Of a DNA stretch of 64,000 nucleotides, positions 2,641 through 19,816 are shown one piece after another (the first letter of the stretch is position 1; each line of letters begins with the position of its first letter). The stretch spans positions 410-64,409 of the forward strand of contig BTUR01000002.1 in NCBI GenBank assembly GCA_045863475.1, read 5' to 3'. Made by a program: the position numbers and the translations under genes. The DNA is from Candidatus Campbellbacteria bacterium. Lineage in GTDB: Bacteria; Patescibacteriota; Minisyncoccia; Phycocordibacterales; EsbW-18. Under the pieces are notes generated by a model that was not told where the DNA came from, ran no database searches, and saw nothing but the letters and a program-made list of their open reading frames with translations.

Positions 2641-3605
2641 AGTGCAGACACCCTCTCGTTGCCGCATTCTTTCTGTATCGTCGTACCGTCTTTCTCCAGA
2701 TAGACGGTCGTTTCTTTTGTGGTGTACGAAAAATCTTCCGGGTTGATGGAGAGTGTTACGAAAAGGCCGCAGCGAACGTTGTCGTTCCAGTACTGGTCAA
2801 AGACGAGATTACCGAGCGAGTAATAAATGTCTTTTCCGTTGTAGGTCTCGCGTGTCTGTATGACGTGCGGGTGGCCGCCAACGATAAAATCTGCTCCGGC
2901 ATCAATGAACTCCCGAGCAAGGGCTTTCTGATATTCGTTCGGCTCATTCGTGTATTCGTATCCCCAATGCGTGAACACGACCACGAAATCTGTCGTCGTT
3001 GCGAGCGAGCGGATAGTGGCAACGACATCGTCTTTTCCCGGTGGAAAGAATTCGTTAAATCCGACGAAACCAATGCGTGTTCCGCGGATGTCCTGTATGT
3101 GGTGCGTCTGCGCGAACGGCTCGCCGAAGTATGAGAGTCCAACGTCGCTGAGATGTTGTTTTGTCTGTGAAAGTCCCGGGTTGCCGAAATTAAATACGTG
3201 GTTGTTGGCGAGCGAGAGTACGCCGATATTGGCGCTCGTGAGTGCCTCGACCGTCTTCGGTGAGAACGTAAACACGTAGTTGTTCTGCTCAAGCGGCTTT
3301 GAGCCCTGGCTGACCGATTCGAATGTGGTGACCGATCCCTCCAGATTCGCAACAACAACATCGTGTGATGAGAAGAGAGGCGCGAGAGGTGCAAGGATGG
3401 CGTCATACCCAAGCAGTTCTGCTTTTTGACGGATGTATCGGTCAAACATGAGGTCACCACCGAAGCCGATGACAACGGGTTCTTGTTTTGGAGAAAGGCG
3501 ATTGACGATGTGTTGCAGCGGCGTCGGCGCACCTGCGGGGCGCGGGAAGGTGAGTATTCCGGCAACAAGTGCGACAACGACAATAATCAACCAGCCCTTT
3601 TTCAT
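2637..3605 (-). CDS. CapA/PgsA-family metallophosphatase (poly-gamma-glutamate synthesis-type), membrane-anchored
   Basis: MKKGWLIIVVVALVAG signal/TM, then calcineurin-like motifs (GDLMFDR, GGHPH). The upstream ORF extension overlaps tRNA-Val and is discarded. Confidence 0.7.
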   Translation of the reverse strand: MKKGWLIIVVVALVAGILTFPRPAGAPTPLQHIVNRLSPKQEPVVIGFGGDLMFDRYIRQKAELLGYDAILAPLAPLFSSHDVVVANLEGSVTTFESVSQGSKPLEQNNYVFTFSPKTVEALTSANIGVLSLANNHVFNFGNPGLSQTKQHLSDVGLSYFGEPFAQTHHIQDIRGTRIGFVGFNEFFPPGKDDVVATIRSLATTTDFVVVFTHWGYEYTNEPNEYQKALAREFIDAGADFIVGGHPHVIQTRETYNGKDIYYSLGNLVFDQYWNDNVRCGLFVTLSINPEDFSYTTKETTVYLEKDGTTIQKECGNERVSAL

Positions 3606-3804: not shown

Positions 3805-5235
3805 TTACTCCTCCTCCCATGTGATGGTGGTGTATTGGTCAGTTACCAACGGGAATGACGGTGGTGGTCCGTACAAGAGGCTTCCGTCGTAGTTGATGTT
3901 TCTTGTCTGGTATCCGGTATTGTCGGTGTAGGCAAAACCGTATCGCTGACTGGTCGCAATCATACCCCACAGTGTTATGGTTTGCCGTGTGTGGTACGGC
4001 GAGCATCGCTGTGAGTTGCCGCTCGGTCCGCGGTAGTAGTATCGTCCGACACGGCCATTCTGTGCGATGAGTGCGCCATCAATTCTCAAATCGTCTTCAC
4101 TTACCAATCCGACGGTCACGTTGCCTTGCGCAATGAGACCGAGCACATCAGTGCCATCATAATTTGTGTAGAGGAGATCATTGTTTACGACTATGTTTTT
4201 TCGGAACGGCGGATTGTCAGGAAGAAACGCGGCAACGATGGTGAGACGGCCGCCGTCTATCTGCCCATCAACAAAGATGTCGTCTTCCAAAAAGATGATG
4301 CCATTTTCCGGGAACGGATATGTGTCAATCAAATGCTGGTTTCGTATGCTCCATGTCCCCCAACCGGACTGATCTGCACTGTTCGTGCATCCCGACGGTG
4401 CGTTGGTAAAGCCCGTGACGCGATAGAGATCAAACGTGTCGTCGGTCTTCAACACGATGTGGTACCCCAATGCGCCCGCACTCGGCCGGTAGAAACCTGC
4501 AGTTTGCGCGTCGGTTTTCATTTGTGCGAGATCGGTGGTGATACCGAAGAAGTCCACGGCCGGAACAGGGAACTGGCGGCCGATTTGGAACACATCGGTT
4601 CGGTTTGGTACCGCCGACGGCGGAAGCGGGTCAACAGGAGCGACGTGGGTGTGCACACCAAACTCGTTTCCTCCCGTATGGTCAGGATCGTTGTAGGTGG
4701 CAACCGCGCTTGAAATCACGTTGTGCGCGATACCATCAAAGCGCACGCCTTGGTTGGAGTGAACGGGTCCGAACACCTCTGTACCTTCTCCGAACCGCAT
4801 AACGTCGTTTGCGGCAACGGCATATTTTGCGATGGACGGTTTGGCAAACTGCACTGCGATTTCACGATCAAGCGTTTCGTTGTCGGCCACGTTTCCTTTT
4901 GATGAGACCTGAACGAGTGTGGAACCAAGCGGTGGCGGTGTAATGTCGAGGGTGAATTGACCGACAACATTGTCGTCTTTGTCGCGGAAGTCATGCGTGT
5001 ACGGGCCTGAGGTGCCGGTTCCGTCTTGGAAGTCCTCAGGCGCGTGCGCGAGGTGCCATCGGTAGTAATCAATACCCGCCTCCGCAATCTGAAGTGTCTT
5101 CTCACGGTCCACGGCTTGTCGTCCCGCTTTCACATTGAGGAGTGCCCACGACGCGGACGCGTTCAGGAGATATACGGCGACTGAGCCGAAAATGATTACC
5201 GGTGCCAATATGAATCCTGCGGTGCGCGTGCTCAT
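3805..5235 (-). CDS. Pilus-associated protein (PilX/minor-pilin-like), N-terminal TM anchor. Last gene of the pilin-like operon.
   Basis: N-terminal hydrophobic helix and a Gly/Thr/Asp-rich extracellular body. Its start overlaps the stop of the upstream pseudopilin gene by 4 nt. Confidence 0.5.
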   Translation of the reverse strand: MSTRTAGFILAPVIIFGSVAVYLLNASASWALLNVKAGRQAVDREKTLQIAEAGIDYYRWHLAHAPEDFQDGTGTSGPYTHDFRDKDDNVVGQFTLDITPPPLGSTLVQVSSKGNVADNETLDREIAVQFAKPSIAKYAVAANDVMRFGEGTEVFGPVHSNQGVRFDGIAHNVISSAVATYNDPDHTGGNEFGVHTHVAPVDPLPPSAVPNRTDVFQIGRQFPVPAVDFFGITTDLAQMKTDAQTAGFYRPSAGALGYHIVLKTDDTFDLYRVTGFTNAPSGCTNSADQSGWGTWSIRNQHLIDTYPFPENGIIFLEDDIFVDGQIDGGRLTIVAAFLPDNPPFRKNIVVNNDLLYTNYDGTDVLGLIAQGNVTVGLVSEDDLRIDGALIAQNGRVGRYYYRGPSGNSQRCSPYHTRQTITLWGMIATSQRYGFAYTDNTGYQTRNINYDGSLLYGPPPSFPLVTDQYTTITWEEE

Positions 5236-5855
5236 AGGTTGTCTTTGAGGTTTCTCATTGAAACTTGCGTCGTCAGGGTGATTGCCCCCGGCGGCTCCTG
5301 GGCGTCTTTGTCGATGACTATTGTTATTTTTGCCAACCGTACGGTGGATATGTCCACGGGGTCGGAAAGCGGGTCCGTTGTGCCGTCATAGCTGTCGTCG
5401 TAGTAGGCGAAGACGGACGTCGTGCCGTTGGCAACGTCGTGAATGAATTCAGTCACGACTTCGTCGCCAGGGTTGTAGGTCAGTGGTGATCCGGTCGGTT
5501 TTGTGATGCCTTTTTTCAGTATTGTACCGTCGAGGAAGTATCGCACATGCTCTTTGAGTTGGTCGTCGTCCACGTTGCGGTAGAAGGCAATTGATGATGA
5601 GGAAGTTTCTGACAGGGCGTATGCACCGAGACTGGACGGGGAAGCGGAACGAATCTCCGCACTCATCATTTTAAGTCCTCGACGCGCCTCATTCTGTGCC
5701 GTCAGGCTTTCCGAGATGACTCGGTTTATTGAGAAGACATCTTTCTGGAACGCATAGAGGACAAGTCCGAGCACAATGAGCAGTGCAATACCGAAGAGCA
5801 TTTCAACGACAGTGAACCCGAAACGGAAACGATTTTTATTGCGGTGTGCGTTCAT
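5232..5855 (-). CDS. Prepilin-type N-terminal cleavage/methylation domain protein (pseudopilin/minor pilin)
   Basis: N-terminus MNAHRNKNRFRFGFTVVEMLFGIALLIV matches the class III signal (G|FTxxE + hydrophobic helix). Confidence 0.7.
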   Translation of the reverse strand: MNAHRNKNRFRFGFTVVEMLFGIALLIVLGLVLYAFQKDVFSINRVISESLTAQNEARRGLKMMSAEIRSASPSSLGAYALSETSSSSIAFYRNVDDDQLKEHVRYFLDGTILKKGITKPTGSPLTYNPGDEVVTEFIHDVANGTTSVFAYYDDSYDGTTDPLSDPVDISTVRLAKITIVIDKDAQEPPGAITLTTQVSMRNLKDNL

Positions 5856-5858
5856 GGT

Positions 5859-7661
5859 TTACGGTGATAAGGTGATTTCTCGCTGCTGCCACGATTCGTC
5901 CATCGAGACGGTATCGGTGGATTGCTGGTAACCGGATTTGGAGACCGTCAGCGTGTACGTACCTGCACCAAGACCGGTGAAGAGTGCCTGGCCCGGCGGT
6001 ACACACGACGACGTGAAAGTGAATGAGACGTCGGAGATTGTCGGTGTCCACGTTGTACTTGCGGTTTGCAGGTACGCTTTGTAGCGCAGATATCGTGAAC
6101 CGTCATGCAGTGCGTTGATGTTTTGGTCGGCCGCGGTGTAGTAGGAAGCGGATGTGCCGTCCGGTCCCACAAAATTCCATGCGAGCTTGTCGTTGTTTGT
6201 GGCGATTTGAAAACGGACACTGTCTGCACCCGTCGGCGGCGGCTGATCTTGCGGTTGCCAAAGAATTTGATGGAAATTTGCCGATGATGAACCGACGTCA
6301 AACGTTGAGGAAATAAGCCAGCCGGATGTCTGGTATTCATCAAGAATTTGTCTCAAGTGAAATTCGCCGGCAGGGTCGTTTGTTCGGATGTCTCCGTCGG
6401 AGTCGAAATATTCAGTTGTGTTGACGTAGTCTTCCTGTCCCGATCCTCCTGACCAGTCGGTCTGGCGTATAAAACCTTGTCCGGTGGTCAGTGTTTCGTC
6501 GTAGCCGGTTTTCTCGAGCCGGACGGTTGCGTCAGTAAGCGGAAGCTGTGTTGACGCGTCTTTGACGGTTACCAGCAGTGTTCGCGGGGTTTTTGGCGTG
6601 ACGATGAACTTCAGGTCTTGTGTCGAGTCAGGATTAAGTGATAACGGCAAAAGTGGAATGGTTCCCGCGAGGTCGTAGACGCCGTCGGTGAGGTCTACGT
6701 CGTATGTGTCCCACTCAAGCCCGGACACGTTTCGGTCTCCCGCGGCATTGGTTGAGAATGAAGCATCGTACTTCAGAATCTCAGGGTCCGTACCGATGAG
6801 TTTGGAGCCGAACAGGGAGAACCCGACGGAGGGAACAGGTGTGCAGGTATCCGTCATGCTCGAGATTGAAAGTGAGCTCGTGCGGTCAATGGAGAAGCTG
6901 ATTTGTGTGAGCTGTTGGAGGGCCACGGTTGCGTGCGGTTTAACCGGGTTGGGGTTGTCTTCATCGCCTGAAGGATACGTCATGTCCGTTGAGTAGCCGG
7001 ACTTCGAGACGGTTACCTCATATGCTTCGACGCCGGGCGGTGCATCGACGATTTGGAGCAGTCCGTTGTTATTCGTTGAGTCGTCAATAACGATGGAGGA
7101 CGTCCCTTGATTGTTTTCTACGTGCACATCGGCATCGACTATCGGTTGTCCCGACGCATCAAAAACCTGAACAAAGAGCGCGCCGTTCGTTGAAGCGGTT
7201 TCAAGCGCTCGCGGTCCGACGTGCGTGGTGAAGGAAAGTGGTGTGAAATTTCTGCACGACGCACAGCTGATTTCCAATTCAATGAGTTTGTAGTCGCTCG
7301 GAGAAAGGTCCGTAGGACTGCCGTCTATTGTGCCGTCAAACGGGTCGTCAATGTTGCGTATGGTGGTTTCCACGGAGAACTCATTGCCATCGCGCGTCAG
7401 CGTCTGTATGTGGGGAATCTTGCCGTCCGGAATACCATCGGGTATACCGACATCCGTGTACGGCAGGTTGCGGATGATTTCAAATTGTTCATTGGCAAGC
7501 GCCGCAGCTGCGACTTTGAGACGAGACGCTTCAATCGCGCGCATAGTTACGATATACCCCTGGTAGACACTGACCGCGATGACGAGAAAAACGAATATCC
7601 CGACGAGGGATTCTACGAGCGTAAATCCGTGCTGTGATTTAGAGGCGTGCATGACAAGCAA
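5859..7661 (-). CDS. Large prepilin-type N-terminal domain protein (600 aa) with beta-rich carboxypeptidase-regulatory-like repeats
   Basis: HGFTLVESLVGIFVFLVIA prepilin signature near the N-terminus. First gene of a three-gene co-directional cluster. Confidence 0.7.
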   Translation of the reverse strand: MLVMHASKSQHGFTLVESLVGIFVFLVIAVSVYQGYIVTMRAIEASRLKVAAAALANEQFEIIRNLPYTDVGIPDGIPDGKIPHIQTLTRDGNEFSVETTIRNIDDPFDGTIDGSPTDLSPSDYKLIELEISCASCRNFTPLSFTTHVGPRALETASTNGALFVQVFDASGQPIVDADVHVENNQGTSSIVIDDSTNNNGLLQIVDAPPGVEAYEVTVSKSGYSTDMTYPSGDEDNPNPVKPHATVALQQLTQISFSIDRTSSLSISSMTDTCTPVPSVGFSLFGSKLIGTDPEILKYDASFSTNAAGDRNVSGLEWDTYDVDLTDGVYDLAGTIPLLPLSLNPDSTQDLKFIVTPKTPRTLLVTVKDASTQLPLTDATVRLEKTGYDETLTTGQGFIRQTDWSGGSGQEDYVNTTEYFDSDGDIRTNDPAGEFHLRQILDEYQTSGWLISSTFDVGSSSANFHQILWQPQDQPPPTGADSVRFQIATNNDKLAWNFVGPDGTSASYYTAADQNINALHDGSRYLRYKAYLQTASTTWTPTISDVSFTFTSSCVPPGQALFTGLGAGTYTLTVSKSGYQQSTDTVSMDESWQQREITLSP

Positions 7662-7718
7662 TATGAATACTCTTTATGATAGCAAAAGAAAAAACCTTTT
7701 TGCTATAAAACAGAGGGT

Positions 7719-14010: not shown

Positions 14011-14604
14011 ATGAACTACCTCATTATCGGTTTGGGAAATCCCGGAGAGAACTACGAAGGCACGCGGCACAACGTTGGACGCATGTTTGTTGATTTTGTG
14101 CGCACACAGGAAGATTTTCCGGAGTGGGAGAATGAAAAAAAAGCGGTCGCGCAGCTCTCAAAGGGAAAAATAGGAAAACATGACGTGTTTTTGTCGCTTC
14201 CGGACACCTTTATGAACAAATCAGGGAGCGCGGCGGCGTATCTTGCCCGAGCCAGAAAGGTAAAATCGGAGCACGTCGTCGTCGCGTATGACGACATTGA
14301 TTTGCCGCTCGGCACGCTCAAAATTTCTTTCGACCGCGGATCCGGCGGACATCGCGGACTTGAATCGGTTATCAAGGCGCTGAAGACGCGCGAATTTTTG
14401 CGCGTCCGCTTCGGTATCTCGGGTGCGACACCAAAAGGTAAGACGAAGAAACCGCAGGGAGAAGAGAAGGTGTTGAAGTTCCTGCTCGGTGCATTTAAGA
14501 AAGAGGAACTCACTGCGCTCAAAAAAATATTCAAGAAAGCGCACGAGGCGATTGAGGTTGCTATTACAGAGGGAAGAGAGAAGGCGATGTCGCAATTCAA
14601 TTAG
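14011..14604 (+). CDS. pth: Peptidyl-tRNA hydrolase
   Basis: MNYLIIGLGNPG..RHNVG N-terminal signature. Confidence 0.9.
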   Translation: MNYLIIGLGNPGENYEGTRHNVGRMFVDFVRTQEDFPEWENEKKAVAQLSKGKIGKHDVFLSLPDTFMNKSGSAAAYLARARKVKSEHVVVAYDDIDLPLGTLKISFDRGSGGHRGLESVIKALKTREFLRVRFGISGATPKGKTKKPQGEEKVLKFLLGAFKKEELTALKKIFKKAHEAIEVAITEGREKAMSQFN

Positions 14605-14633
14605 GGAACAGGGACTCGTGAACAGAGGATGGA

Positions 14634-14672
14634 AAACAAAAACGGTTCGCCAGGGGCGAACCGTTTTTGTTT
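14634..14672. terminator. Bidirectional intrinsic terminator between pth and rpsA
   Basis: AAAAACGGTTCGCC aggg GCGAACCGTTTTTG, with A/T runs on both sides. Confidence 0.7.
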
Positions 14673-14685
14673 ACTCGAAGCGAAT

Positions 14686-15804
14686 TTACTTCTTTTCGGG
14701 AACGTAGGAGAGCGTCATGCGCTGTTCCTTCGGATCGAAGAGATTAATCTTGAACGTGTATGACTTACCAAGCTCAAGCTGTTCGCGAAGTTTGTCGATA
14801 GATTCAAACTCCGAGACGTGCACCAATCCGGCGACACCTTCTTCAACCGATGCGAGTGCACCGTGCTTGTTGTACTTGATGATGACCGCGGAAACCACGT
14901 CATCCTTCGTGTACTTCTTGCCGGCGGAAACCCACGGGTTTTCCTTGAGTGCCTTGATTGAGAGTGAAATCTTGCCGTCTTTTATCTCAATAATCTTCGC
15001 GCGGACTTTTTCACCGACGGAGAAGATCTTGCGCGGGTCTTCAACGAGACCCCAGTCGAGCTCCGAGATGTGCGCGAGTCCTTCGAGGCCGTCTTCAACT
15101 TTCATGAATACACCGAAGTCCACAATGCCGGTAATTTCACCTTCAACTTCGTCGCCGACACCGTATTTTTCGATGAGTACTTCTTTTTCTTTCTCACCGA
15201 TACCTTTCTCAGAGAAAATGAGTTTTCCTTCCTTCGGGTCTGCAGTGATAATGACGACCGTGAGGAGTTCACCGACGAGTTTTGCCAACTCATCGAAGAT
15301 GCGCTCTTTGTCGCCGCCGTCAACGCGCGGGTAGTGCTCTTTGCCGAGCTGGGATGCCGGCAAGAAGCCCGCAATACCTTGCCACTCGACAATGAGACCG
15401 CCCTTGTTCGCTTCTTTGACAGGAAGGACGAAGGTCTTCTTTTCTTTTACCGCCTTCTCCGCGTCGCTCCAGATGATTGCCTGGCGTGCTTCGCGCAGTG
15501 AGAGTTCGTAATAACCGTCTTCATTGTTCGTCTCGACGATGGTACCCGATACCTCGTCGCCGATGGCGATGTTTTTGATGATGTCACGCGCGTTGTTGTA
15601 CTCGCGTCCGAAGATGATACCCGAGCCGAATGGCGGGATATCAACGATGACTGAGGACTTGTGGAGCGCAATGACGCGTCCTTCCACGATGTCGCCGACG
15701 GAGGGCGGTGTTTTGCTCGCAGCGAGCATCAACCCCATCGGGCTTTGATCTACTGCCGGTGCCTCGTCTGTCGTCTGCTTGTCTTTTGTAATACTTGCTT
15801 CCAT
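14686..15804 (-). CDS. rpsA: 30S ribosomal protein S1 (four S1 domains)
   Basis: Repeated S1 OB-fold motifs (GxV..I..FGAFV-like: GRVIALHKSSVIVDI, GIVDFGVFMKV, etc.). Confidence 0.9.
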   Translation of the reverse strand: MEASITKDKQTTDEAPAVDQSPMGLMLAASKTPPSVGDIVEGRVIALHKSSVIVDIPPFGSGIIFGREYNNARDIIKNIAIGDEVSGTIVETNNEDGYYELSLREARQAIIWSDAEKAVKEKKTFVLPVKEANKGGLIVEWQGIAGFLPASQLGKEHYPRVDGGDKERIFDELAKLVGELLTVVIITADPKEGKLIFSEKGIGEKEKEVLIEKYGVGDEVEGEITGIVDFGVFMKVEDGLEGLAHISELDWGLVEDPRKIFSVGEKVRAKIIEIKDGKISLSIKALKENPWVSAGKKYTKDDVVSAVIIKYNKHGALASVEEGVAGLVHVSEFESIDKLREQLELGKSYTFKINLFDPKEQRMTLSYVPEKK

Positions 15805-15952
15805 ATATGTTGCGTCTGATACGCAAAAAAGGGCAAAAACCCCCGTGATGACCCGTCATGCGACGGCATCTATTGGTTTTGGTTACTTACTAATGGCCTT
15901 GTCCCCTTATGACAAAGACAGGGAAGAGTATAGCACGCGTATTACCGGAGAT

Positions 15953-16300
15953 TCAACTCTTCGGTTGAGTGACCCCGGCTTCGATTTCTGCATGGCAATT
16001 CTTACAAACAAGGGTGCATTTTTTTGCTTCTTTCACGATGCTTTCCCACGAATAGGAGAGTCCTTTAACACTTAATGCAAATTCCTTCTTTTTTGAATCA
16101 ATATGGTGAAAATCAAGAGCACCAATGTATTTTTTGTATCCGCAAACGGAGCATTTGCCGCCGAATAACTGTACAAGGCGAGCTTTCTTACCTCGCCTGT
16201 TTTTGACGACCCACGCAGACGCACATTTTCCGCAACGGTACGAACCATCGGGTCGAAGGAAATGTTTTGTTGAGCCGTGTTTTCTACAGATTCGATTCAT
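15953..16300 (-). CDS. Free-standing HNH endonuclease with Zn-finger, adjacent to the intron-containing tRNA
   Basis: CxxC..CxxC plus DFHHIDSKKKEF..CKNCHAEIE (HNH motif). AT-rich codon usage unlike the core genes. Confidence 0.7.
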   Translation of the reverse strand: MNRICRKHGSTKHFLRPDGSYRCGKCASAWVVKNRRGKKARLVQLFGGKCSVCGYKKYIGALDFHHIDSKKKEFALSVKGLSYSWESIVKEAKKCTLVCKNCHAEIEAGVTQPKS

Positions 16301-16381
16301 TGTGCGAACAGTATAACACCACGTGTTAAGGTTGTCTTTTCCCGATAATTCTCTATACTATTTTTAGATGTTCCACAATAT

Positions 16382-16680
16382 TCCGGTGTAGCTCAATGGT
16401 AGAGCAGCGCCCTGTAACACTTGCAGCTTTCTCGAGTAATCGAGATCGAACACGAGGTGAATTCGGTGAAACCCTTCATGTATTTGTGGGGCAATACCGA
16501 GCCAAGCCGCGCACGGCGCGGAAGGTGTAGAGACTATCCCTTCAGGGAGTACTTCTTCGGAAACGAAGCGGGAAGCGCCTCGCCCCCATCATGGTGGGGT
16601 GATGATATAGTCCATACCTGTAGGTAACTACGGGATTCTATGTAAGGCGTTGGTTGTAGGTTCGAATCCTACCACCGGAG
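16382..16680 (+). tRNA. tRNA-Asn(GUU) interrupted by a group I intron. Exon 1 is 16382..16415 and exon 2 is 16643..16680.
   Basis: The spliced product TCCGGTG TA GCTC AATGGTA GAGC A GCGCC CTGT|TAA GGCGT TGGTT GTAGG TTCGAAT CCTAC CACCGGA G has U1-A72 and a CUGUUAA loop, as in bacterial tRNA-Asn. Confidence 0.7.
16416..16642 (+). ncRNA. Group I self-splicing intron (about 227 nt, no internal ORF) in the anticodon loop between nt 35 and 36
   Basis: P1 (exon CUGU : IGS GCAG, U.G at the splice site), P2 CTCGA-GTAA-TCGAG, P7 GACUAU/AUAGUC with a G-binding site, GAAA and GUAA tetraloop hairpins (P8/P9), and an omega-G at 16642. Confidence 0.7.
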
Positions 16681-16693
16681 CTGAGGATAAAGA

Positions 16694-16719
16694 AAAAGCA
16701 CCCGAACGGGTGTTTTTTC
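16694..16719 (+). terminator. Intrinsic terminator after tRNA-Asn
   Basis: GCACCCG aa CGGGTG followed by TTTTTTC. Confidence 0.6.
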
Positions 16720-17012
16720 TTTCCATCCGAAGCGAACGGTGGCAATATAGTTATTACCACCGGAGCAAACATAGAATGGTCATAGATATAGAACTGACGT
16801 TGAATAGGTTCGGCTTTGGAAAGATTTCTGAAAATAAATTTCAGTTTCTTTGTTTTAGATTTTCTAAATGGGACATTCCAGATAAATATTCAATCTCTTT
16901 TGAAATAAACTGGCGAGTAAAAGGAAAGGTGTAGCGGTGTTTTCGACAGGGGGTTGGGGGATGAAAAGCCCCGTTTGCTATACTGGTCGAATTATTCGAC
17001 TAGTATAAAAAT

Positions 17013-17306
17013 ATGATTATCGTACACGACACTTTTGTTTGTAAGCCGGGGAATGCTTCAAAAATGGCGAAGTTGTTTAAGGAGGTTATGGAAAATCAAC
17101 CCGGGGTGCTGTATGTCATGACTGATATGACCGGACAGTGGCACAGAGTAATCATGGTAAGCCAGCACGAAAACCTGACTGCGTATGAAAAGAACTGGGA
17201 GAAGCACATGGAGGATACCGAGGAAAACAGAAAGATGGGAGAGAAAATGAAAGAGATCAATAATATGTACGTGTCCGGCTCCCGAGAGATATTTAAGGTT
17301 TGGTAG
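17013..17306 (+). CDS. Small AT-rich-codon protein (97 aa), possible ABM/dimeric alpha+beta-barrel fold
   Basis: MIIVHDTFVCKPGN..GVLYVMTDMTG.. alternating beta/alpha pattern. A perfect 15-nt palindrome GTCGAATTATTCGAC sits in its promoter region. Confidence 0.4.
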   Translation: MIIVHDTFVCKPGNASKMAKLFKEVMENQPGVLYVMTDMTGQWHRVIMVSQHENLTAYEKNWEKHMEDTEENRKMGEKMKEINNMYVSGSREIFKVW

Positions 17307-17323
17307 TGCCGCAGAACACCTGT

Positions 17324-17506
17324 ATGAATAAAAAAAGAGCACTTCTCTCCACTCTCGAAATCGTACTGGGGGTGCTCATGATTGTGTACGGCGGATACGA
17401 TGACAGTCCCGGAGCGCAGCTGCTCGGACTCGTGGCGGTTGTTTTCGGTGTCGTGGGTATGGTAAGAAACAGGAAGAAGAACGCTGTTCCACCGATTCAA
17501 AAATAA
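17324..17506 (+). CDS. Small membrane protein (about 60 aa)
   Basis: A single hydrophobic helix LSTLEIVLGVLMIVYGG and GLVAVVFGVVG. Confidence 0.3.
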   Translation: MNKKRALLSTLEIVLGVLMIVYGGYDDSPGAQLLGLVAVVFGVVGMVRNRKKNAVPPIQK

Positions 17507-17507
17507 A

Positions 17508-17535
17508 AAGAGCCCGTACGGGCTCTTTTTATTTC
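17508..17535. terminator. Bidirectional intrinsic terminator
   Basis: AAAGAGCCCG ta CGGGCTCTTTTT. Confidence 0.75.
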
Positions 17536-17945
17536 CCGTAGCGGTGCTTCTTCGCAATGCACCGACAGCCGTACGGCTTGATGTGTTCGTCAAAATATTC
17601 CTGCTGATAGTCGTACGTGAGTTCTTCACCCGACGCTATCTTTCGCAGTGCAAAAACGTAAATGCGTCCGCGCAGAATGTCGATTTTACAGTTCGGTGTG
17701 CAGGAGTGATTGATGTACCGCGCGATGTTTTTTCTGCTGCTGCCATCTATAAATCGGTTTTTGTTTGTTTCAAATAGGTACTTGCCACCGCGTGCGTCAG
17801 CCTGTGTAAGTGTCAGTACCGGTCCTGTGTATTCAATAACGAACCCGCGCCGCTCAATAGGCGCGTCGGTAAACAATCCCAGGCCACTGACACCGCGTCG
17901 TACACGCAGGGAACGGGTGATATGTCGGTATTTTTTAGGTAACAC
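17529..17945 (-). CDS. SET-domain protein (putative protein-lysine methyltransferase)
   Basis: GFVIEYTG, NHSCTPNC, ELTYDY and a post-SET Cys (CRC). Confidence 0.75.
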   Translation of the reverse strand: MLPKKYRHITRSLRVRRGVSGLGLFTDAPIERRGFVIEYTGPVLTLTQADARGGKYLFETNKNRFIDGSSRKNIARYINHSCTPNCKIDILRGRIYVFALRKIASGEELTYDYQQEYFDEHIKPYGCRCIAKKHRYGK

Positions 17946-18182
17946 AGACGCCAGTATGCCAGAGTGTCTTTAAAAATAAAGAGAAAAAGCATACCCGCGC
18001 ATTTTTCCACCAGTTATCACCTTTTTTATCCCCACATGGGGCTTTTTTTATTGACACACAACACTCTGCTCGCGACAATGAGTACAGGTTTCGGAGTCGG
18101 ACAGGCTGGATCGCAAGTGAAGGCCACGCACGTGAGGCTTCGGCCGATAGAGTGCTACGACTGTGTGACCTACTCAAAAATT

Positions 18183-18204
18183 CCTACGCAAGTAGGGATT
18201 TTTG
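18183..18204 (+). terminator. GNRA-loop hairpin terminator (CCTAC-GCAA-GTAGG + TTTTTG)
   Basis: Closes a roughly 150-nt promoter-to-terminator unit (TTGACA at 18052) with no credible ORF. Confidence 0.45.
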
Positions 18205-18223
18205 ATTTTAGGAGAGACAAGGG

Positions 18224-19423
18224 CTACTCAAAGATATCCCACATTTCTTTGTCTTCGTTGCCGTCGAATTTAAATATCGCAACACCTAAAAGGTCGTACT
18301 CTTTCGCGAGGTCCACTTTTTGCCGGATGGCTTCCGCATCGCTCCACGTCGCGTAGTAGAACACGGACGGCAAGCCTGTCTGTTTTGTATAAGCGAAACT
18401 CAGTGCCGCGGCACGGCTTGCGTCAGACGTTGTGTTCGGGATTGATACCGCACCGTTGAATTGAGGTGCGTTTTTGAGTGTCGGGAAGGAGAAGGAAAGT
18501 TCTCCGGCGTCACTTCGCTCAGGTGTCACACGCTCGTGTTTTGCGGTCTTACTGCCGTAGGATGGATTGAATGCGCCGGTTTTGTTGTAGGCCTGGTACG
18601 CGTCTGAATATACGACGACTTCGTACTCGTGCCCGTACGTGGGGATACCCAAACTAAGCTTTTCTTTCGGAATGGTTTGCAGTGTCAGTTCAATAACCTT
18701 TCGCACCCATGCGGGATCGGATACCGGAATATAGGGTTCACCGGGGTGGCTTTTGTTGAGTTTGAGGTCGGCGCGTTGCTGGTCGTACGTCATGATGTTG
18801 ACGTGGTCGCAGTACTTTGCGATTGCATTAAAATCGTTTGCGTAGCGAAGGTCCGCGGGCATTGTTGTATAGAGCGAGTCCGGCGGCGTGCGCGCTTCAA
18901 TGGTGCAGGAAAGTACTTTGTTTTTTCCAAGTTCATCTTTCAGCTCGCGCAGGAAAAGTGCAAAAGCATCGTGTGTTTCGGCGAGCTTGCCTTCGTAGTC
19001 GATGTCCACGCCGTCGTATTTTCCTTTGCGCACCATGTCACTGATTTCTTCAACGTGATTTTTTCGGAGGTCTTCATTGGTAAGTACCGCGTGCATCATG
19101 TACGTGTTGCTCCACATAACCGTCGGAATAACGAGGATGTCTTTTTTGCGCGCGGTTGAGAACAGTTTTTTCCACGTGCTTTTTTTGAGTTTTGCGAGAT
19201 CAGTGAGCGAGCCGTCGTTTTTTACCGTGTAAGCAAACGGGAAGATGACGGAGAGTTCGCTGAGGTGTTTGCGTGCATCACGCGTACCACTTGAGGCAGC
19301 CCAGTAGGGAATCCACCCGGACACTTCAAGGTCAGATGCAGCGAACAGCGGGGCGGGGGAAGCACCGAGTAGAAGCATTGTCGCGCAGAGCAGTACAAGT
19401 TTGTTTTGCAGTGCGTGTTTCAT
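18224..19423 (-). CDS. Secreted glycoside hydrolase family 18 (chitinase-like)
   Basis: Signal peptide MKHALQNKLVLLCATMLLLGA and the DGVDIDYE catalytic motif. The 126-aa upstream ORF extension is discarded. Confidence 0.8.
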   Translation of the reverse strand: MKHALQNKLVLLCATMLLLGASPAPLFAASDLEVSGWIPYWAASSGTRDARKHLSELSVIFPFAYTVKNDGSLTDLAKLKKSTWKKLFSTARKKDILVIPTVMWSNTYMMHAVLTNEDLRKNHVEEISDMVRKGKYDGVDIDYEGKLAETHDAFALFLRELKDELGKNKVLSCTIEARTPPDSLYTTMPADLRYANDFNAIAKYCDHVNIMTYDQQRADLKLNKSHPGEPYIPVSDPAWVRKVIELTLQTIPKEKLSLGIPTYGHEYEVVVYSDAYQAYNKTGAFNPSYGSKTAKHERVTPERSDAGELSFSFPTLKNAPQFNGAVSIPNTTSDASRAAALSFAYTKQTGLPSVFYYATWSDAEAIRQKVDLAKEYDLLGVAIFKFDGNEDKEMWDIFE

Positions 19424-19509
19424 ATACATACAGTATACCTTGCGATACACAAAACGTTTCAGATTATTTATCCGCACATTCATGTGTTCTTCAGGTGGTA
19501 TGGTGATAC

Positions 19510-19537
19510 TTGACAAAATACCGTAGAGTGCTATACT
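19510..19537 (+). promoter_or_regulatory. Near-consensus sigma70 promoter with extended -10 (TTGACA-16-TGcTATACT) driving cassette A
   Basis: TTGACAaaataccgtagagTGcTATACT. Confidence 0.55.
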
Positions 19538-19585
19538 GTACACGGACAATCGAATGGTCGATTGCCGGACGCTTCGGAGGCATTC

Positions 19586-19816
19586 ATGGCGAGCAACAAG
19601 AAGTTCTGGCGGAGGGACTGCGACAAGAGCCTGCGGAACATCGGACGCCGGAGCTACTGGTTCCGCGAGCCGAGCGCTCGTCGTGAAGCGGTTCTGCCGG
19701 GTTCGAAGCTCATCCGTACCGCCGTCGTGGCCGGGTTCGAGAAGAACCGTGAGCGGTTGCCGCCGAACGTGTTCAACAGCCGCGGGGGCTGCTGCCGCCA
19801 CTTCGGCATCGCCTAG
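19586..19816 (+). CDS. Cassette A: small Arg-rich protein (76 aa) with extreme GC3 and a strong SD. Compositionally foreign.
   Basis: GGAGG sits 5 nt before the ATG. Codon positions 3 are almost all G/C (AAG, GAG, TTC, CGG..). MASNKKFWRRDCDK...GGCCRHFGIA. Confidence 0.5.
   Translation: MASNKKFWRRDCDKSLRNIGRRSYWFREPSARREAVLPGSKLIRTAVVAGFEKNRERLPPNVFNSRGGCCRHFGIA

Follow-up and report, generated by a model that had tools for sequence, protein, structure and literature searches.

A free-standing HNH nuclease gene beside an intron-containing tRNA-Asn gene in Candidatus Campbellbacteria: a candidate endonuclease/intron pair of the collaborative homing type

Results

The HNH/tRNA-Asn locus

The DNA analysed here, termed the window, is a stretch of 64,000 nucleotides (nt) from a Candidatus Campbellbacteria bacterium (assembly GCA_045863475.1, contig BTUR01000002.1, positions 410 to 64,409), in which an earlier reading of the letters alone (the sequence-only reading) had drawn attention to the region between 15.9 and 18.0 kb. 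The features that it listed are all present, i.e. a gene for a 115-residue HNH nuclease, a split tRNA-Asn gene 81 nt away, a direct repeat of the tRNA 3′ end, a palindrome, a SET-domain gene and an ABM-like gene (Table 1). The HNH and tRNA genes lie on opposite strands and are divergent, with the 81 nt (16301-16381) separating their starts. The comparisons described below suggest that these two genes, at 15953-16681, may form a split endonuclease/intron pair, of the type known from collaborative homing in phages, on a bacterial chromosome.

Table 1. Coordinates of the features at the HNH/tRNA-Asn locus and in the adjoining DNA (window positions)
Feature	Position	Strand	Basis and remarks
HNH nuclease gene, with N-terminal zinc ribbon	15953-16300	-	115-residue open reading frame (ORF); Pfam and PHROG matches; invariant residues
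HNH promoter, −10 hexamer TATACT preceded by TGT (extended −10)	16310-16315	-	Promoter scan
17-bp palindrome ATAACAC-CAC-GTGTTAA, candidate operator	16313-16329		Overlaps HNH −10 box; unique in the 64-kb window
Promoter-like site for the tRNA (TTGTCT, 16 nt, TATACT)	16332-16359	+	Promoter scan
tRNA-Asn(GUU) 5′ exon, ends ...CUGU (anticodon positions 34-35)	16382-16415	+	ARAGORN on spliced sequence; alignment with relatives
Group I intron, ORF-less, 227 nt, inserted at 35/36	16416-16642	+	Rfam RF00028
tRNA-Asn 3′ exon, discriminator G at 16680	16643-16681	+	ARAGORN on spliced sequence; holds repeat copy 1 (16670-16681)
Intrinsic terminator hairpin of the tRNA	16689-16722	+	Inverted repeat; RNA fold z-score −7.0
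Second copy of the tRNA 3′ end (TACCACCGGAGC), likely recombination scar	16755-16766	+	3′ arm of a small hairpin with CGGTGG (16737-16742)
29-nt near-perfect palindrome, one G.T position, core GTCGAATTATTCGAC (16986-17000)	16979-17007		Ends 5 nt before the NIPSNAP start codon
NIPSNAP-family (ABM-clan) gene, 97 residues	17013-17306	+	Pfam, homologues; variable neighbour, outside the HNH/intron module
Small membrane protein, about 61 residues from ATG (68 from TTG at 17300)	17321-17506	+	ORF, Pfam scan, locus comparison; variable neighbour
SET-domain protein, 138 residues	17529-17945	-	Pfam PF00856, 80 bits (cut-off 22.4), E 2e-22

The split tRNA was not detected when ARAGORN was run on the window, whereas the two exons, once joined, are called as a canonical tRNA-Asn(GTT). 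The intervening DNA matches the Rfam group I intron family over 16405-16634 (60.3 bits, gathering score 50), and its P1 can be drawn as CUGU/AA...UUGCAG, with a U.G pair at the 5′ splice site; the intron has G as its final base. By its sequence, the intron is a member of the published class of Patescibacteria group I introns at position 35/36 of tRNA-Asn and is predicted to be self-splicing, as has been reported for two introns homologous to it (PMC13011429). The tRNA promoter region has a GTTTGT ... TGTGTATAAT pattern that is kept in relatives. Two side observations concern tRNA-Asn loci elsewhere: one metagenome contig (L120) has two tRNA-Asn copies with introns, about 4 kb from each other and oppositely oriented (3259-3526 and 7430-7682), with no HNH gene detected, and matches to the Rfam LOOT RNA (RF03000) lie about 4 kb from tRNA-Asn in three non-Paceibacteria Patescibacteria loci (L065:9588-9699, L076:9264-9379, L082:10174-10264).

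The HNH protein and its homologues

The predicted HNH protein combines an N-terminal zinc ribbon (ligands C5-x2-H8 and C23-x2-C26) with an HNH core comprising C50xxC53, D63-F-H65-H66 and C99xxC102-H103. The catalytic His pair, the metal-binding His and both CxxC pairs of zinc ligands are all present, and C50, C53, D63, H65, H66, C99, C102 and H103 are unchanged in an alignment of 21 homologues. The Pfam HNH model (PF01844) matches the protein marginally, at 21.7 bits with a cut-off of 21.4, and the HNH-endonuclease families of PHROG match it with E-values of 6e-24 (phrog_2255) and 3e-20 (phrog_3106). An AlphaFold (AF2) model has a predicted local distance difference test score (pLDDT) of 90.9; its best Foldseek matches in the PDB are to HNH domains only (Cap5, T4 endonuclease VII, Cas9 HNH and Gme HNH) and are weak, with E-values of 0.035 or worse and template modelling (TM) scores of about 0.37-0.39. 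A sequence search of the PDB with the family profile gave spurious zinc-ribbon matches only. No model in NCBIfam or PADLOC matches the window protein, and a reading of the gene as part of a defence system was dropped; a maturase role is also unlikely, because the gene is kept intact at loci without the intron.

Searches returned 431 homologous clusters, the best 120 of which are 62-80% identical to the window protein, all the named ones among these 120 being from Patescibacteria. Many of the best matches in a library clustered at 50% (proteins P0121, P0122, P0123 and P0127) are of 220-430 residues, with two tandem zinc-ribbon plus HNH modules, and come from arginine/alanine-rich, probably high-GC organisms; these proteins may be covalent dimers of this nuclease, an arrangement that fits a dimeric working unit. 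The AT-rich codons that the sequence-only reading had pointed out in the HNH gene are evident in the GC content at third codon positions (GC3), which is 0.405 compared with 0.593 ± 0.049 for 35 long ORFs in the window. Since the flanking genes exceed the HNH gene in GC3 at 31 of 33 loci (means 0.40 for the HNH gene and 0.55 for the flanks, correlation r 0.71), the AT-rich codons are best regarded as a trait of the HNH family.

The proposal that the gene belongs to a homing-endonuclease lineage tied to the intron is borne out by its relatives, as the core of the protein is 55-60% identical to ORFs lying inside the same tRNA-Asn intron elsewhere. This short, intron-encoded form, on the tRNA strand, occurs in at least 13 species, including Doudna-, Berkel- and Woesebacteria and some Paceibacterota; it corresponds to residues 31-115 of the window protein, at 50-60% identity, and is without the zinc ribbon. 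In one such locus (L064), where the 5′ exon ends at 4911 and the ORF spans 4950-5267, the final codons of the ORF include the P1 guide GCAG and are followed by the ribozyme core, so that the ORF occupies loop L1. The intron-encoded and free-standing forms match the same PHROG families, and members of the short clade are also located directly upstream of the tRNA (L065, which is intron-less, L066, L069 and L082). Viral homologues show a comparable habit: of the 80 sampled, 65 have a tRNA gene no more than 600 nt away and are part of phage tRNA arrays (L209-L288; e.g. L210:4675-5620), and the closest full-length viral homologues abut tRNA-Asn.

On these sequence comparisons, the window protein corresponds, as a free-standing form, to the HNH homing endonuclease encoded in loop L1 of the same intron in other Patescibacteria, and the family is a tRNA-gene-associated, phage-type lineage, the ribbon-bearing, free-standing form of which looks ancestral. 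The outside, adjacent and inside states coexist in one protein lineage. Separately, in Acidobacteria (Pyrinomonadaceae; L081 and L083-L088, at about 4600-5330) a zinc-ribbon HNH gene lies between tRNA-Gly(GCC) and tRNA-Cys(GCA) genes, on the same strand, and is kept in several genomes.

Conservation of the pair and variation of its surroundings

A scan with one genome per species gave 80 loci; about 55 non-redundant loci have a full-length HNH gene. The first three homologue contigs inspected all have the HNH gene divergent from an intron-containing tRNA-Asn gene, with a conserved intergenic region, and this layout, that of the window, is found at 37 of the approximately 55 loci. The HNH gene is in tandem with an intron-containing tRNA-Asn gene at six loci, adjoins an intron-less one at another six and is about 4 kb from tRNA-Asn at one, the arrangement at the remainder being cut by contig ends. 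The pair is constant in about 50 Paceibacteria species, while its flanks differ; thus, the S1 and Pth genes are common to the window and L006 only, the 68-residue membrane protein matches L028 only, and the NIPSNAP and GH18 genes are absent from all the HNH loci compared. The surroundings therefore vary and the HNH/tRNA-Asn core, which is conserved across the class Paceibacteria, does not. In this regard the sequence-only reading, which took 15.9-18.0 kb to be a variable islet, was right with respect to flanks that vary by species, but the block is not one unit that is present or absent, the HNH/tRNA pair being its constant core.

Where pairs of loci share neighbours and are close, the identities of the HNH gene and of its flanks are similar (95/98, 91/91, 82/82 and 79/78%, respectively). 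The ratio of nonsynonymous to synonymous substitution rates (dN/dS) of the HNH gene is 0.04-0.13, with the intron-less and intron-encoded clades included, and the gene arrangement tracks the HNH tree. Decayed-looking copies occur in L037, L055, L056 and L058.

Association with the intron and turnover between related genomes

The relationship between the nuclease gene and the intron was also analysed from the side of the tRNA, in a sample of 120 metagenome loci picked by their 5′ exon alone. With kinship ignored, 14 of the 33 intron-bearing alleles that had adequate flank are accompanied by an HNH gene, compared with 1 of 57 that lack the intron (odds ratio 41, p 1e-6). Intron-less alleles exist, and the comparison of syntenic genomes that the sequence-only reading had called for shows that relatives with shared flanks differ in the HNH gene, the intron or both. 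Locus L044 has the HNH gene and the intron, whereas L126, the flanks of which are 80% identical to those of L044, has neither. At L064 the ORF is inside the intron and no free-standing gene was detected, whereas among loci syntenic with it L036, L038, L057, L032 and L055 have a free-standing HNH gene and an ORF-less intron, and L017 and L021 have a free-standing HNH gene and no intron. The HNH gene and the intron are thus polymorphic in presence and absence at the same locus among related genomes. In L126 (1015-1190, compared with L044:4955-5350), moreover, 12 nt of the tRNA 5′ end (ATTCCGGCGTAG) are repeated 72 nt ahead of the tRNA, exactly at the position that the HNH gene has in L044; this duplicate may be the footprint of a loss or of an alternative insertion.

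The tRNA alleles that accompany the ribbon-type HNH gene differ at base 39, which follows TGT^TAA. The base is G in 44 of 47 intron-bearing alleles compared with one of five intron-less alleles (p 6e-4, with kinship ignored, a small sample and L017 and L021 not independent of one another), and this difference is what self-immunity by change of the site would give. A G39C/C31G variant of tRNA-Asn is present in L017, L021 and L035.

The HNH promoter and the 17-bp palindrome

The putative −10 box of the HNH gene is 9 nt ahead of the ATG, and there is no Shine-Dalgarno sequence; the proximity of the two elements and the lack of the third suggest that the HNH mRNA is leaderless. The layout TGTTATAMT-N7-9-ATG is common to the HNH genes of relatives. 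Of 88 loci, 37 have a single copy of TAACAC-N3-GTGTTA, the motif of the 17-bp palindrome that overlaps the −10 box; without exception it precedes the start codon of the ribbon-type HNH gene by 10-40 nt, irrespective of the orientation of the tRNA and of the presence of the intron. Its arms are invariant and its spacer is free, a pattern that fits a protein-binding site rather than an RNA helix, and the proximal arm runs into the extended −10 box. In the intron-encoded clade a similar TGGTATACT-N9-ATG is present and the palindrome is not, nor was the Paceibacteria-type palindrome found with viral HNH homologues. The half-site includes TGTTA(A), which is also the sequence of the anticodon loop where the intron is inserted. 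The evidence is weaker for a more specific version, with the operator reproducing 7-8 nt of the target, as TGTTAAG is present in only 26 of 53 loci and TGTTAAGG in only eight. The likeliest role of the palindrome, offered as a hypothesis with modest support, is autorepression of the HNH gene, which would keep the nuclease low.

The repeat of the tRNA 3′ end

The 12-mer TACCACCGGAGC occurs exactly at the tRNA 3′ end and again at 16755-16766, 85 nt apart, and nowhere else in the 64-kb window; the tRNA terminator hairpin sits between the two copies, which are separated by a spacer of 73 nt. Duplication of a tRNA's own 3′ end (12-20 nt), located 83-572 nt downstream and after the terminator, was found in 13 loci including the window, and such duplicates are present at 15 of 74 intron-bearing compared with 2 of 69 intron-less loci. 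Several of them hold T-loop remnants and so look like pieces of a displaced tRNA 3′ part. The earlier suggestion that the repeat is a scar of recombination is plausible, and the phenomenon is recurrent; its source may be an integrase attachment (att) site, or imprecise repair when the intron was acquired. For the window, we reject an integrated element with the tRNA repeats as its ends: only 73 nt lie between the two copies of TACCACCGGAGC, the 64 kb contain no third, and Pfam found no integrase domain in the adjacent ORFs scanned (14011-19801).

Loci with such duplicates downstream of tRNA-Asn include L004 (3700-5590), L015, L028, L043, L053, L055, L064, L071 and L079, in addition to the window (16732-16766). 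A complementary stretch often precedes the duplicate, with a recurring CGAAGCGA/CGAGGCGAAC motif; in L064 it forms a perfect 12-bp inverted repeat. L004 has the tRNA 3′ end a third time, at a distance of 1.9 kb, with three small ORFs enclosed.

Neighbouring genes

The DNA that follows the tRNA gene (16682-17012) is AT-rich, as the sequence-only reading had it, with a GC content of 0.38. The 15-nt palindrome GTCGAATTATTCGAC, in which the same reading had seen a sign of repressor control, is present as the core of a longer, imperfect palindrome ahead of the NIPSNAP gene. Perfect palindromes with 7-nt arms number 10 in the window compared with 8.5 expected, so the 15-nt core is at chance level; palindromes with 12-nt arms and at most one mismatch number six, with none in five shuffles. 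Neither the 288 loci compared nor the upstream regions of the close NIPSNAP homologues L289-L291 contain the palindrome. As it is not kept elsewhere, repressor control there is unsupported, and on this ground, together with the chance level of the core, its interpretation as a conserved operator was rejected.

The adjacent ABM-like gene is better described as a NIPSNAP-family gene, the two families being of the same clan. Homologues of 66-85% identity carry the NIPSNAP domain (PF07978) and are named NIPSNAP family protein, although the window protein itself is sub-threshold for both Pfam models (NIPSNAP 17.6 bits, cut-off 22.3; ABM 14.5 bits, cut-off 23.1). It has more than 3000 homologous clusters, and a 100%-identical fragment (P0323) is labelled Candidatus Campbellbacteria, a label by which the window belongs to Paceibacteria. 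Its closest homologues (80-85%; L289:5001-5294 and L291:5001-5294) have neighbours that do not look like those of the Candidate Phyla Radiation (CPR), namely CHU_C, T6SS_HCP and GGDEF, and the first 18 nt of the window gene are identical to those in L289. Such sequence relationships make it likely that the NIPSNAP gene was acquired horizontally, across phyla.

The SET-domain assignment is secure (Table 1). GC3 of the SET gene is 0.547, and that of the NIPSNAP, membrane-protein and SET genes is in each case host-like. A SET gene is found within 5 kb of the tRNA-Asn/HNH pair in the window and in five other species (L001:6582-7028, L011, L018, L072 and L076), the other flanking genes being different, a proximity more frequent than expected for single-copy genes in genomes of 0.6-1 Mb. 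Between the convergent membrane-protein and SET genes, a perfect 17-bp loop-less inverted repeat (AAATAAAAAGAGCCCGT/ACGGGCTCTTTTTATTT, 17501-17534) constitutes a bidirectional terminator. Beyond the SET gene, the longest ORF of the GH18 gene (18224-19801) has a low-complexity N-terminal extension of about 140 residues; translation probably begins at about 19420, with the Met that precedes the signal-peptide-like MKHALQNKLVLLCATMLLLGASPAPLFA.

Discussion

A proposed split endonuclease/intron pair

The overall picture at 15953-16681 is that of a two-gene module, and the reading preferred here, to which a probability of about 0.6 is assigned on the sequence comparisons, is that it is a split endonuclease/intron pair of the collaborative homing type on a bacterial chromosome. 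Its grounds are homology and linkage, the three topologies of the genes, purifying selection, syntenic genomes in different states and a conserved palindrome; the site of cleavage, protection by the intron and autoregulation are its predicted parts. In mechanistic terms, the HNH nuclease would recognise tRNA-Asn gene DNA around the anticodon loop (TGT^TAA) and nick or cut uninterrupted tRNA-Asn alleles. The intron, by splitting the target site, would protect the resident tRNA-Asn gene, in line with the logic of collaborative, or trans, homing, and repair from an intron-bearing donor would copy the intron, along with the nuclease gene if the flanks permit. The nuclease itself would be transcribed from its own extended −10 promoter, probably as a leaderless message, this promoter being overlapped by the palindrome of TGTTA(A/T) half-sites.

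Several observations weigh against this proposal. The target site is a guess, predicted from sequence, and the likeness between the operator and the anticodon loop extends over only 6 nt generally and 7 nt (TGTTAAG) in 26 of 53 loci. The position of the extra His of a canonical CxxCHxxxH motif is taken by Glu107 in most of the clade to which the window protein belongs, and by Gly or Ser in a few members. In the tRNA-centred sample, 19 intron-bearing loci with adequate flank carry no HNH gene, and L049, an exception to the base-39 pattern, keeps the gene beside an unaltered TGTTAAGG site. The HNH gene is intact, with dN/dS of 0.04-0.06, in lineages that are without the intron (L017, L021 and L026). 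HNH identity reaches a plateau of 65-80% where that of the neighbouring genes drops to 33-50%, i.e. the gene behaves as a host gene that evolves slowly and is inherited vertically, and the correlation of HNH distances with intron distances (Mantel rho 0.46, p 0.001) is likewise a sign of vertical inheritance. The pattern of identity, the low dN/dS, this correlation and the arrangement of the genes, which follows the tree, all point to vertical co-inheritance. Thus, the HNH/intron pair has apparently been co-inherited under strong constraint and has not spread recently; recent horizontal spread as the cause of the high HNH identity was rejected, since identity tracks that of the flanks in close pairs and then saturates.

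Such strong vertical conservation keeps domestication a serious rival, albeit one that we consider clearly less probable than the split pair. According to this explanation, the protein descends from a homing endonuclease but no longer homes, having taken on a cellular job, e.g. as a DNA-binding regulator acting via the palindrome or as a repair or maintenance nuclease, and its position beside tRNA-Asn is frozen ancestry. That the gene is far more conserved than its neighbours, with vertical-looking identity, that its dN/dS is low even where there is no intron, that L049 retains it beside a target-like site, that His is replaced at position 107 and that the operator-like palindrome is invariant across the class would all be accommodated. 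Domestication is harder to reconcile with the invariance of the remaining catalytic and zinc ligands, with GC3 that is persistently under that of host genes, as for a selfish gene, and with the occasional decayed copies. It is also at odds with presence/absence and replacement of one form by another among syntenic genomes, and with the 19 intron-bearing and 56 intron-less tRNA-Asn loci that have no HNH gene, from which it follows that the gene is dispensable; nor does the protein match defence or housekeeping families.

The two further alternatives concern the relationship of the nuclease with the intron and the extent of the mobile unit. It may be that the tRNA genes are simply a landing pad for a free-standing endonuclease that is independent of the intron ('intronless homing', as with SegB), the intron being a separate resident. 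There is precedent for this in T4 SegB (PMC2330249), and the viral homologues in intron-free tRNA arrays, the Acidobacterial ones between tRNA-Gly and tRNA-Cys and the six loci with an HNH gene beside an intron-less tRNA-Asn gene are as it would predict. It is nonetheless improbable given the strong tie of the HNH gene to intron-bearing alleles, the sister clade physically inside the intron, the covariation of HNH and intron distances and the difference in base 39 between intron-less and intron-bearing alleles. Least probable is the version in which the whole of 15.9-18.0 kb is one recent islet, inserted at the tRNA by site-specific recombination. The direct repeat, the AT-rich intergenic DNA, the flanks that differ even from those of the closest relative (L006) and the horizontally acquired look of the NIPSNAP gene are in its favour. 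It is, however, largely refuted by the comparative data: the pair recurs with unrelated flanks in about 50 species and diverges in step with its hosts, a SET gene is near it in distant relatives too, the NIPSNAP, membrane-protein and SET genes are host-like in GC3, and the short span between the repeats and the absence of an integrase domain from the adjacent ORFs scanned argue in the same direction.

A stronger form of the split-pair reading, which is tentative and in our view rather unlikely to hold in full, can be termed 'intron addiction'. Here the autorepressed, resident HNH nuclease would police tRNA-Asn across Paceibacteria, such that an allele beside it survives only if the intron splits TGT^TAAG or if base 39 is mutated; the model assumes that tRNA-Asn is single-copy, its copy number having been checked within the 64-kb window. 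If correct, an ORF-less intron would be kept in streamlined genomes as an immunity element, rather than as a neutral or regulatory one. In this reading, the lineage also shows every step of the long-postulated route of a free-standing endonuclease into an intron, from phage tRNA arrays to a position beside the tRNA, then to one just upstream of the 5′ exon and finally to loop L1. From a practical perspective, a family of 115-residue nucleases for which a defined target is probable, within a tRNA gene that is universally conserved, and for which there is a matching operator, is a compact system for study or engineering.

Comparison with known systems

Nakagawa et al. 2026 (mSystems, PMC13011429) described Patescibacteria group I introns that interrupt tRNA-Asn(GUU) at position 35/36, and the window intron is like these in its insertion site, in the U before the 5′ splice site, in the G at its 3′ end and in being missed by standard tRNA finders. 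An HNH ORF was reported in four tRNA-Asn introns, and these four correspond to the HNH-only clade found here. In that work endonuclease genes were sought only inside introns of more than 500 bp, and it was concluded that most tRNA introns are endonuclease-less and hence of limited mobility (PMC13011429); there is no mention of the free-standing homologue beside the tRNA that is present in the window and in about 50 Paceibacteria species. The intron and the four intron-encoded HNH proteins are thus already published, and the free-standing partner is not. That survey, the sole one of these introns, left their persistence in very small genomes unexplained (PMC13011429). If the adjacent HNH protein is a trans partner, many 'ORF-less' introns are not orphaned, and their persistence becomes testable, as protection from a resident nuclease.

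The habit of lodging among tRNA genes has a phage parallel in SegB of T4, a free-standing GIY-YIG homing endonuclease inside a phage tRNA gene cluster (PMC2330249). In both cases the DNA of tRNA genes would serve as a conserved target, and it is a habit shared by 65 of the 80 viral HNH homologues; SegB differs from the window protein in that it is of another nuclease family, has no intron involved and works during co-infection by phages, whereas the locus here is cellular. HNH nicking enzymes are also found in the tRNA region of phage T5 (F-TflI, F-TflII and F-TflIV). With respect to regulation, I-TevI, as reportedly described by Edgell et al. in 2004, represses itself by binding an operator over its own promoter, this operator resembling the homing site. 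The window HNH gene likewise has an invariant palindrome over its own −10 box, with half-sites that hold TGTTA(A) of the insertion site. It differs from I-TevI in that the latter is a GIY-YIG enzyme encoded within an intron, and in that the operator of the window gene is a predicted one, with a likeness of 6-7 nt only.

The closest mechanistic analogy is provided by collaborative (trans) homing in phages, as exemplified by F-CphI with the psbA intron of cyanophage S-PM2 and by mobE with the I-TevIII-defective nrdB intron of T4, in which the endonuclease target is the intron insertion site (PMC6083498, PMC2790892; reviewed in PMC3984707). A free-standing endonuclease gene beside an intron-interrupted gene is found in the window and in 43 further loci. 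By contrast with the phage cases, the setting here is a bacterial chromosome, the interrupted gene is that of a tRNA, and the pair is fixed and vertical across a class rather than sporadic; the enzyme of the window is a zinc-ribbon HNH protein, that of F-CphI having an Endo VII-type motif, and cleavage by the window enzyme is predicted. We did not find reported in the literature a free-standing homologue of an intron's own endonuclease that is fixed beside a chromosomal tRNA gene across a bacterial class, a conserved palindrome of a free-standing HNH gene, or a single protein lineage in which outside, adjacent and inside states occur together. The collaborative homing model predicts that the endonuclease gene can later move into the intron, and both of the states that it predicts, i.e. 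outside and inside the intron, occur in this HNH lineage. The locus thus represents a natural series of intermediates for the model in which an endonuclease invades an intron, a model that has so far rested on the two phage cases.

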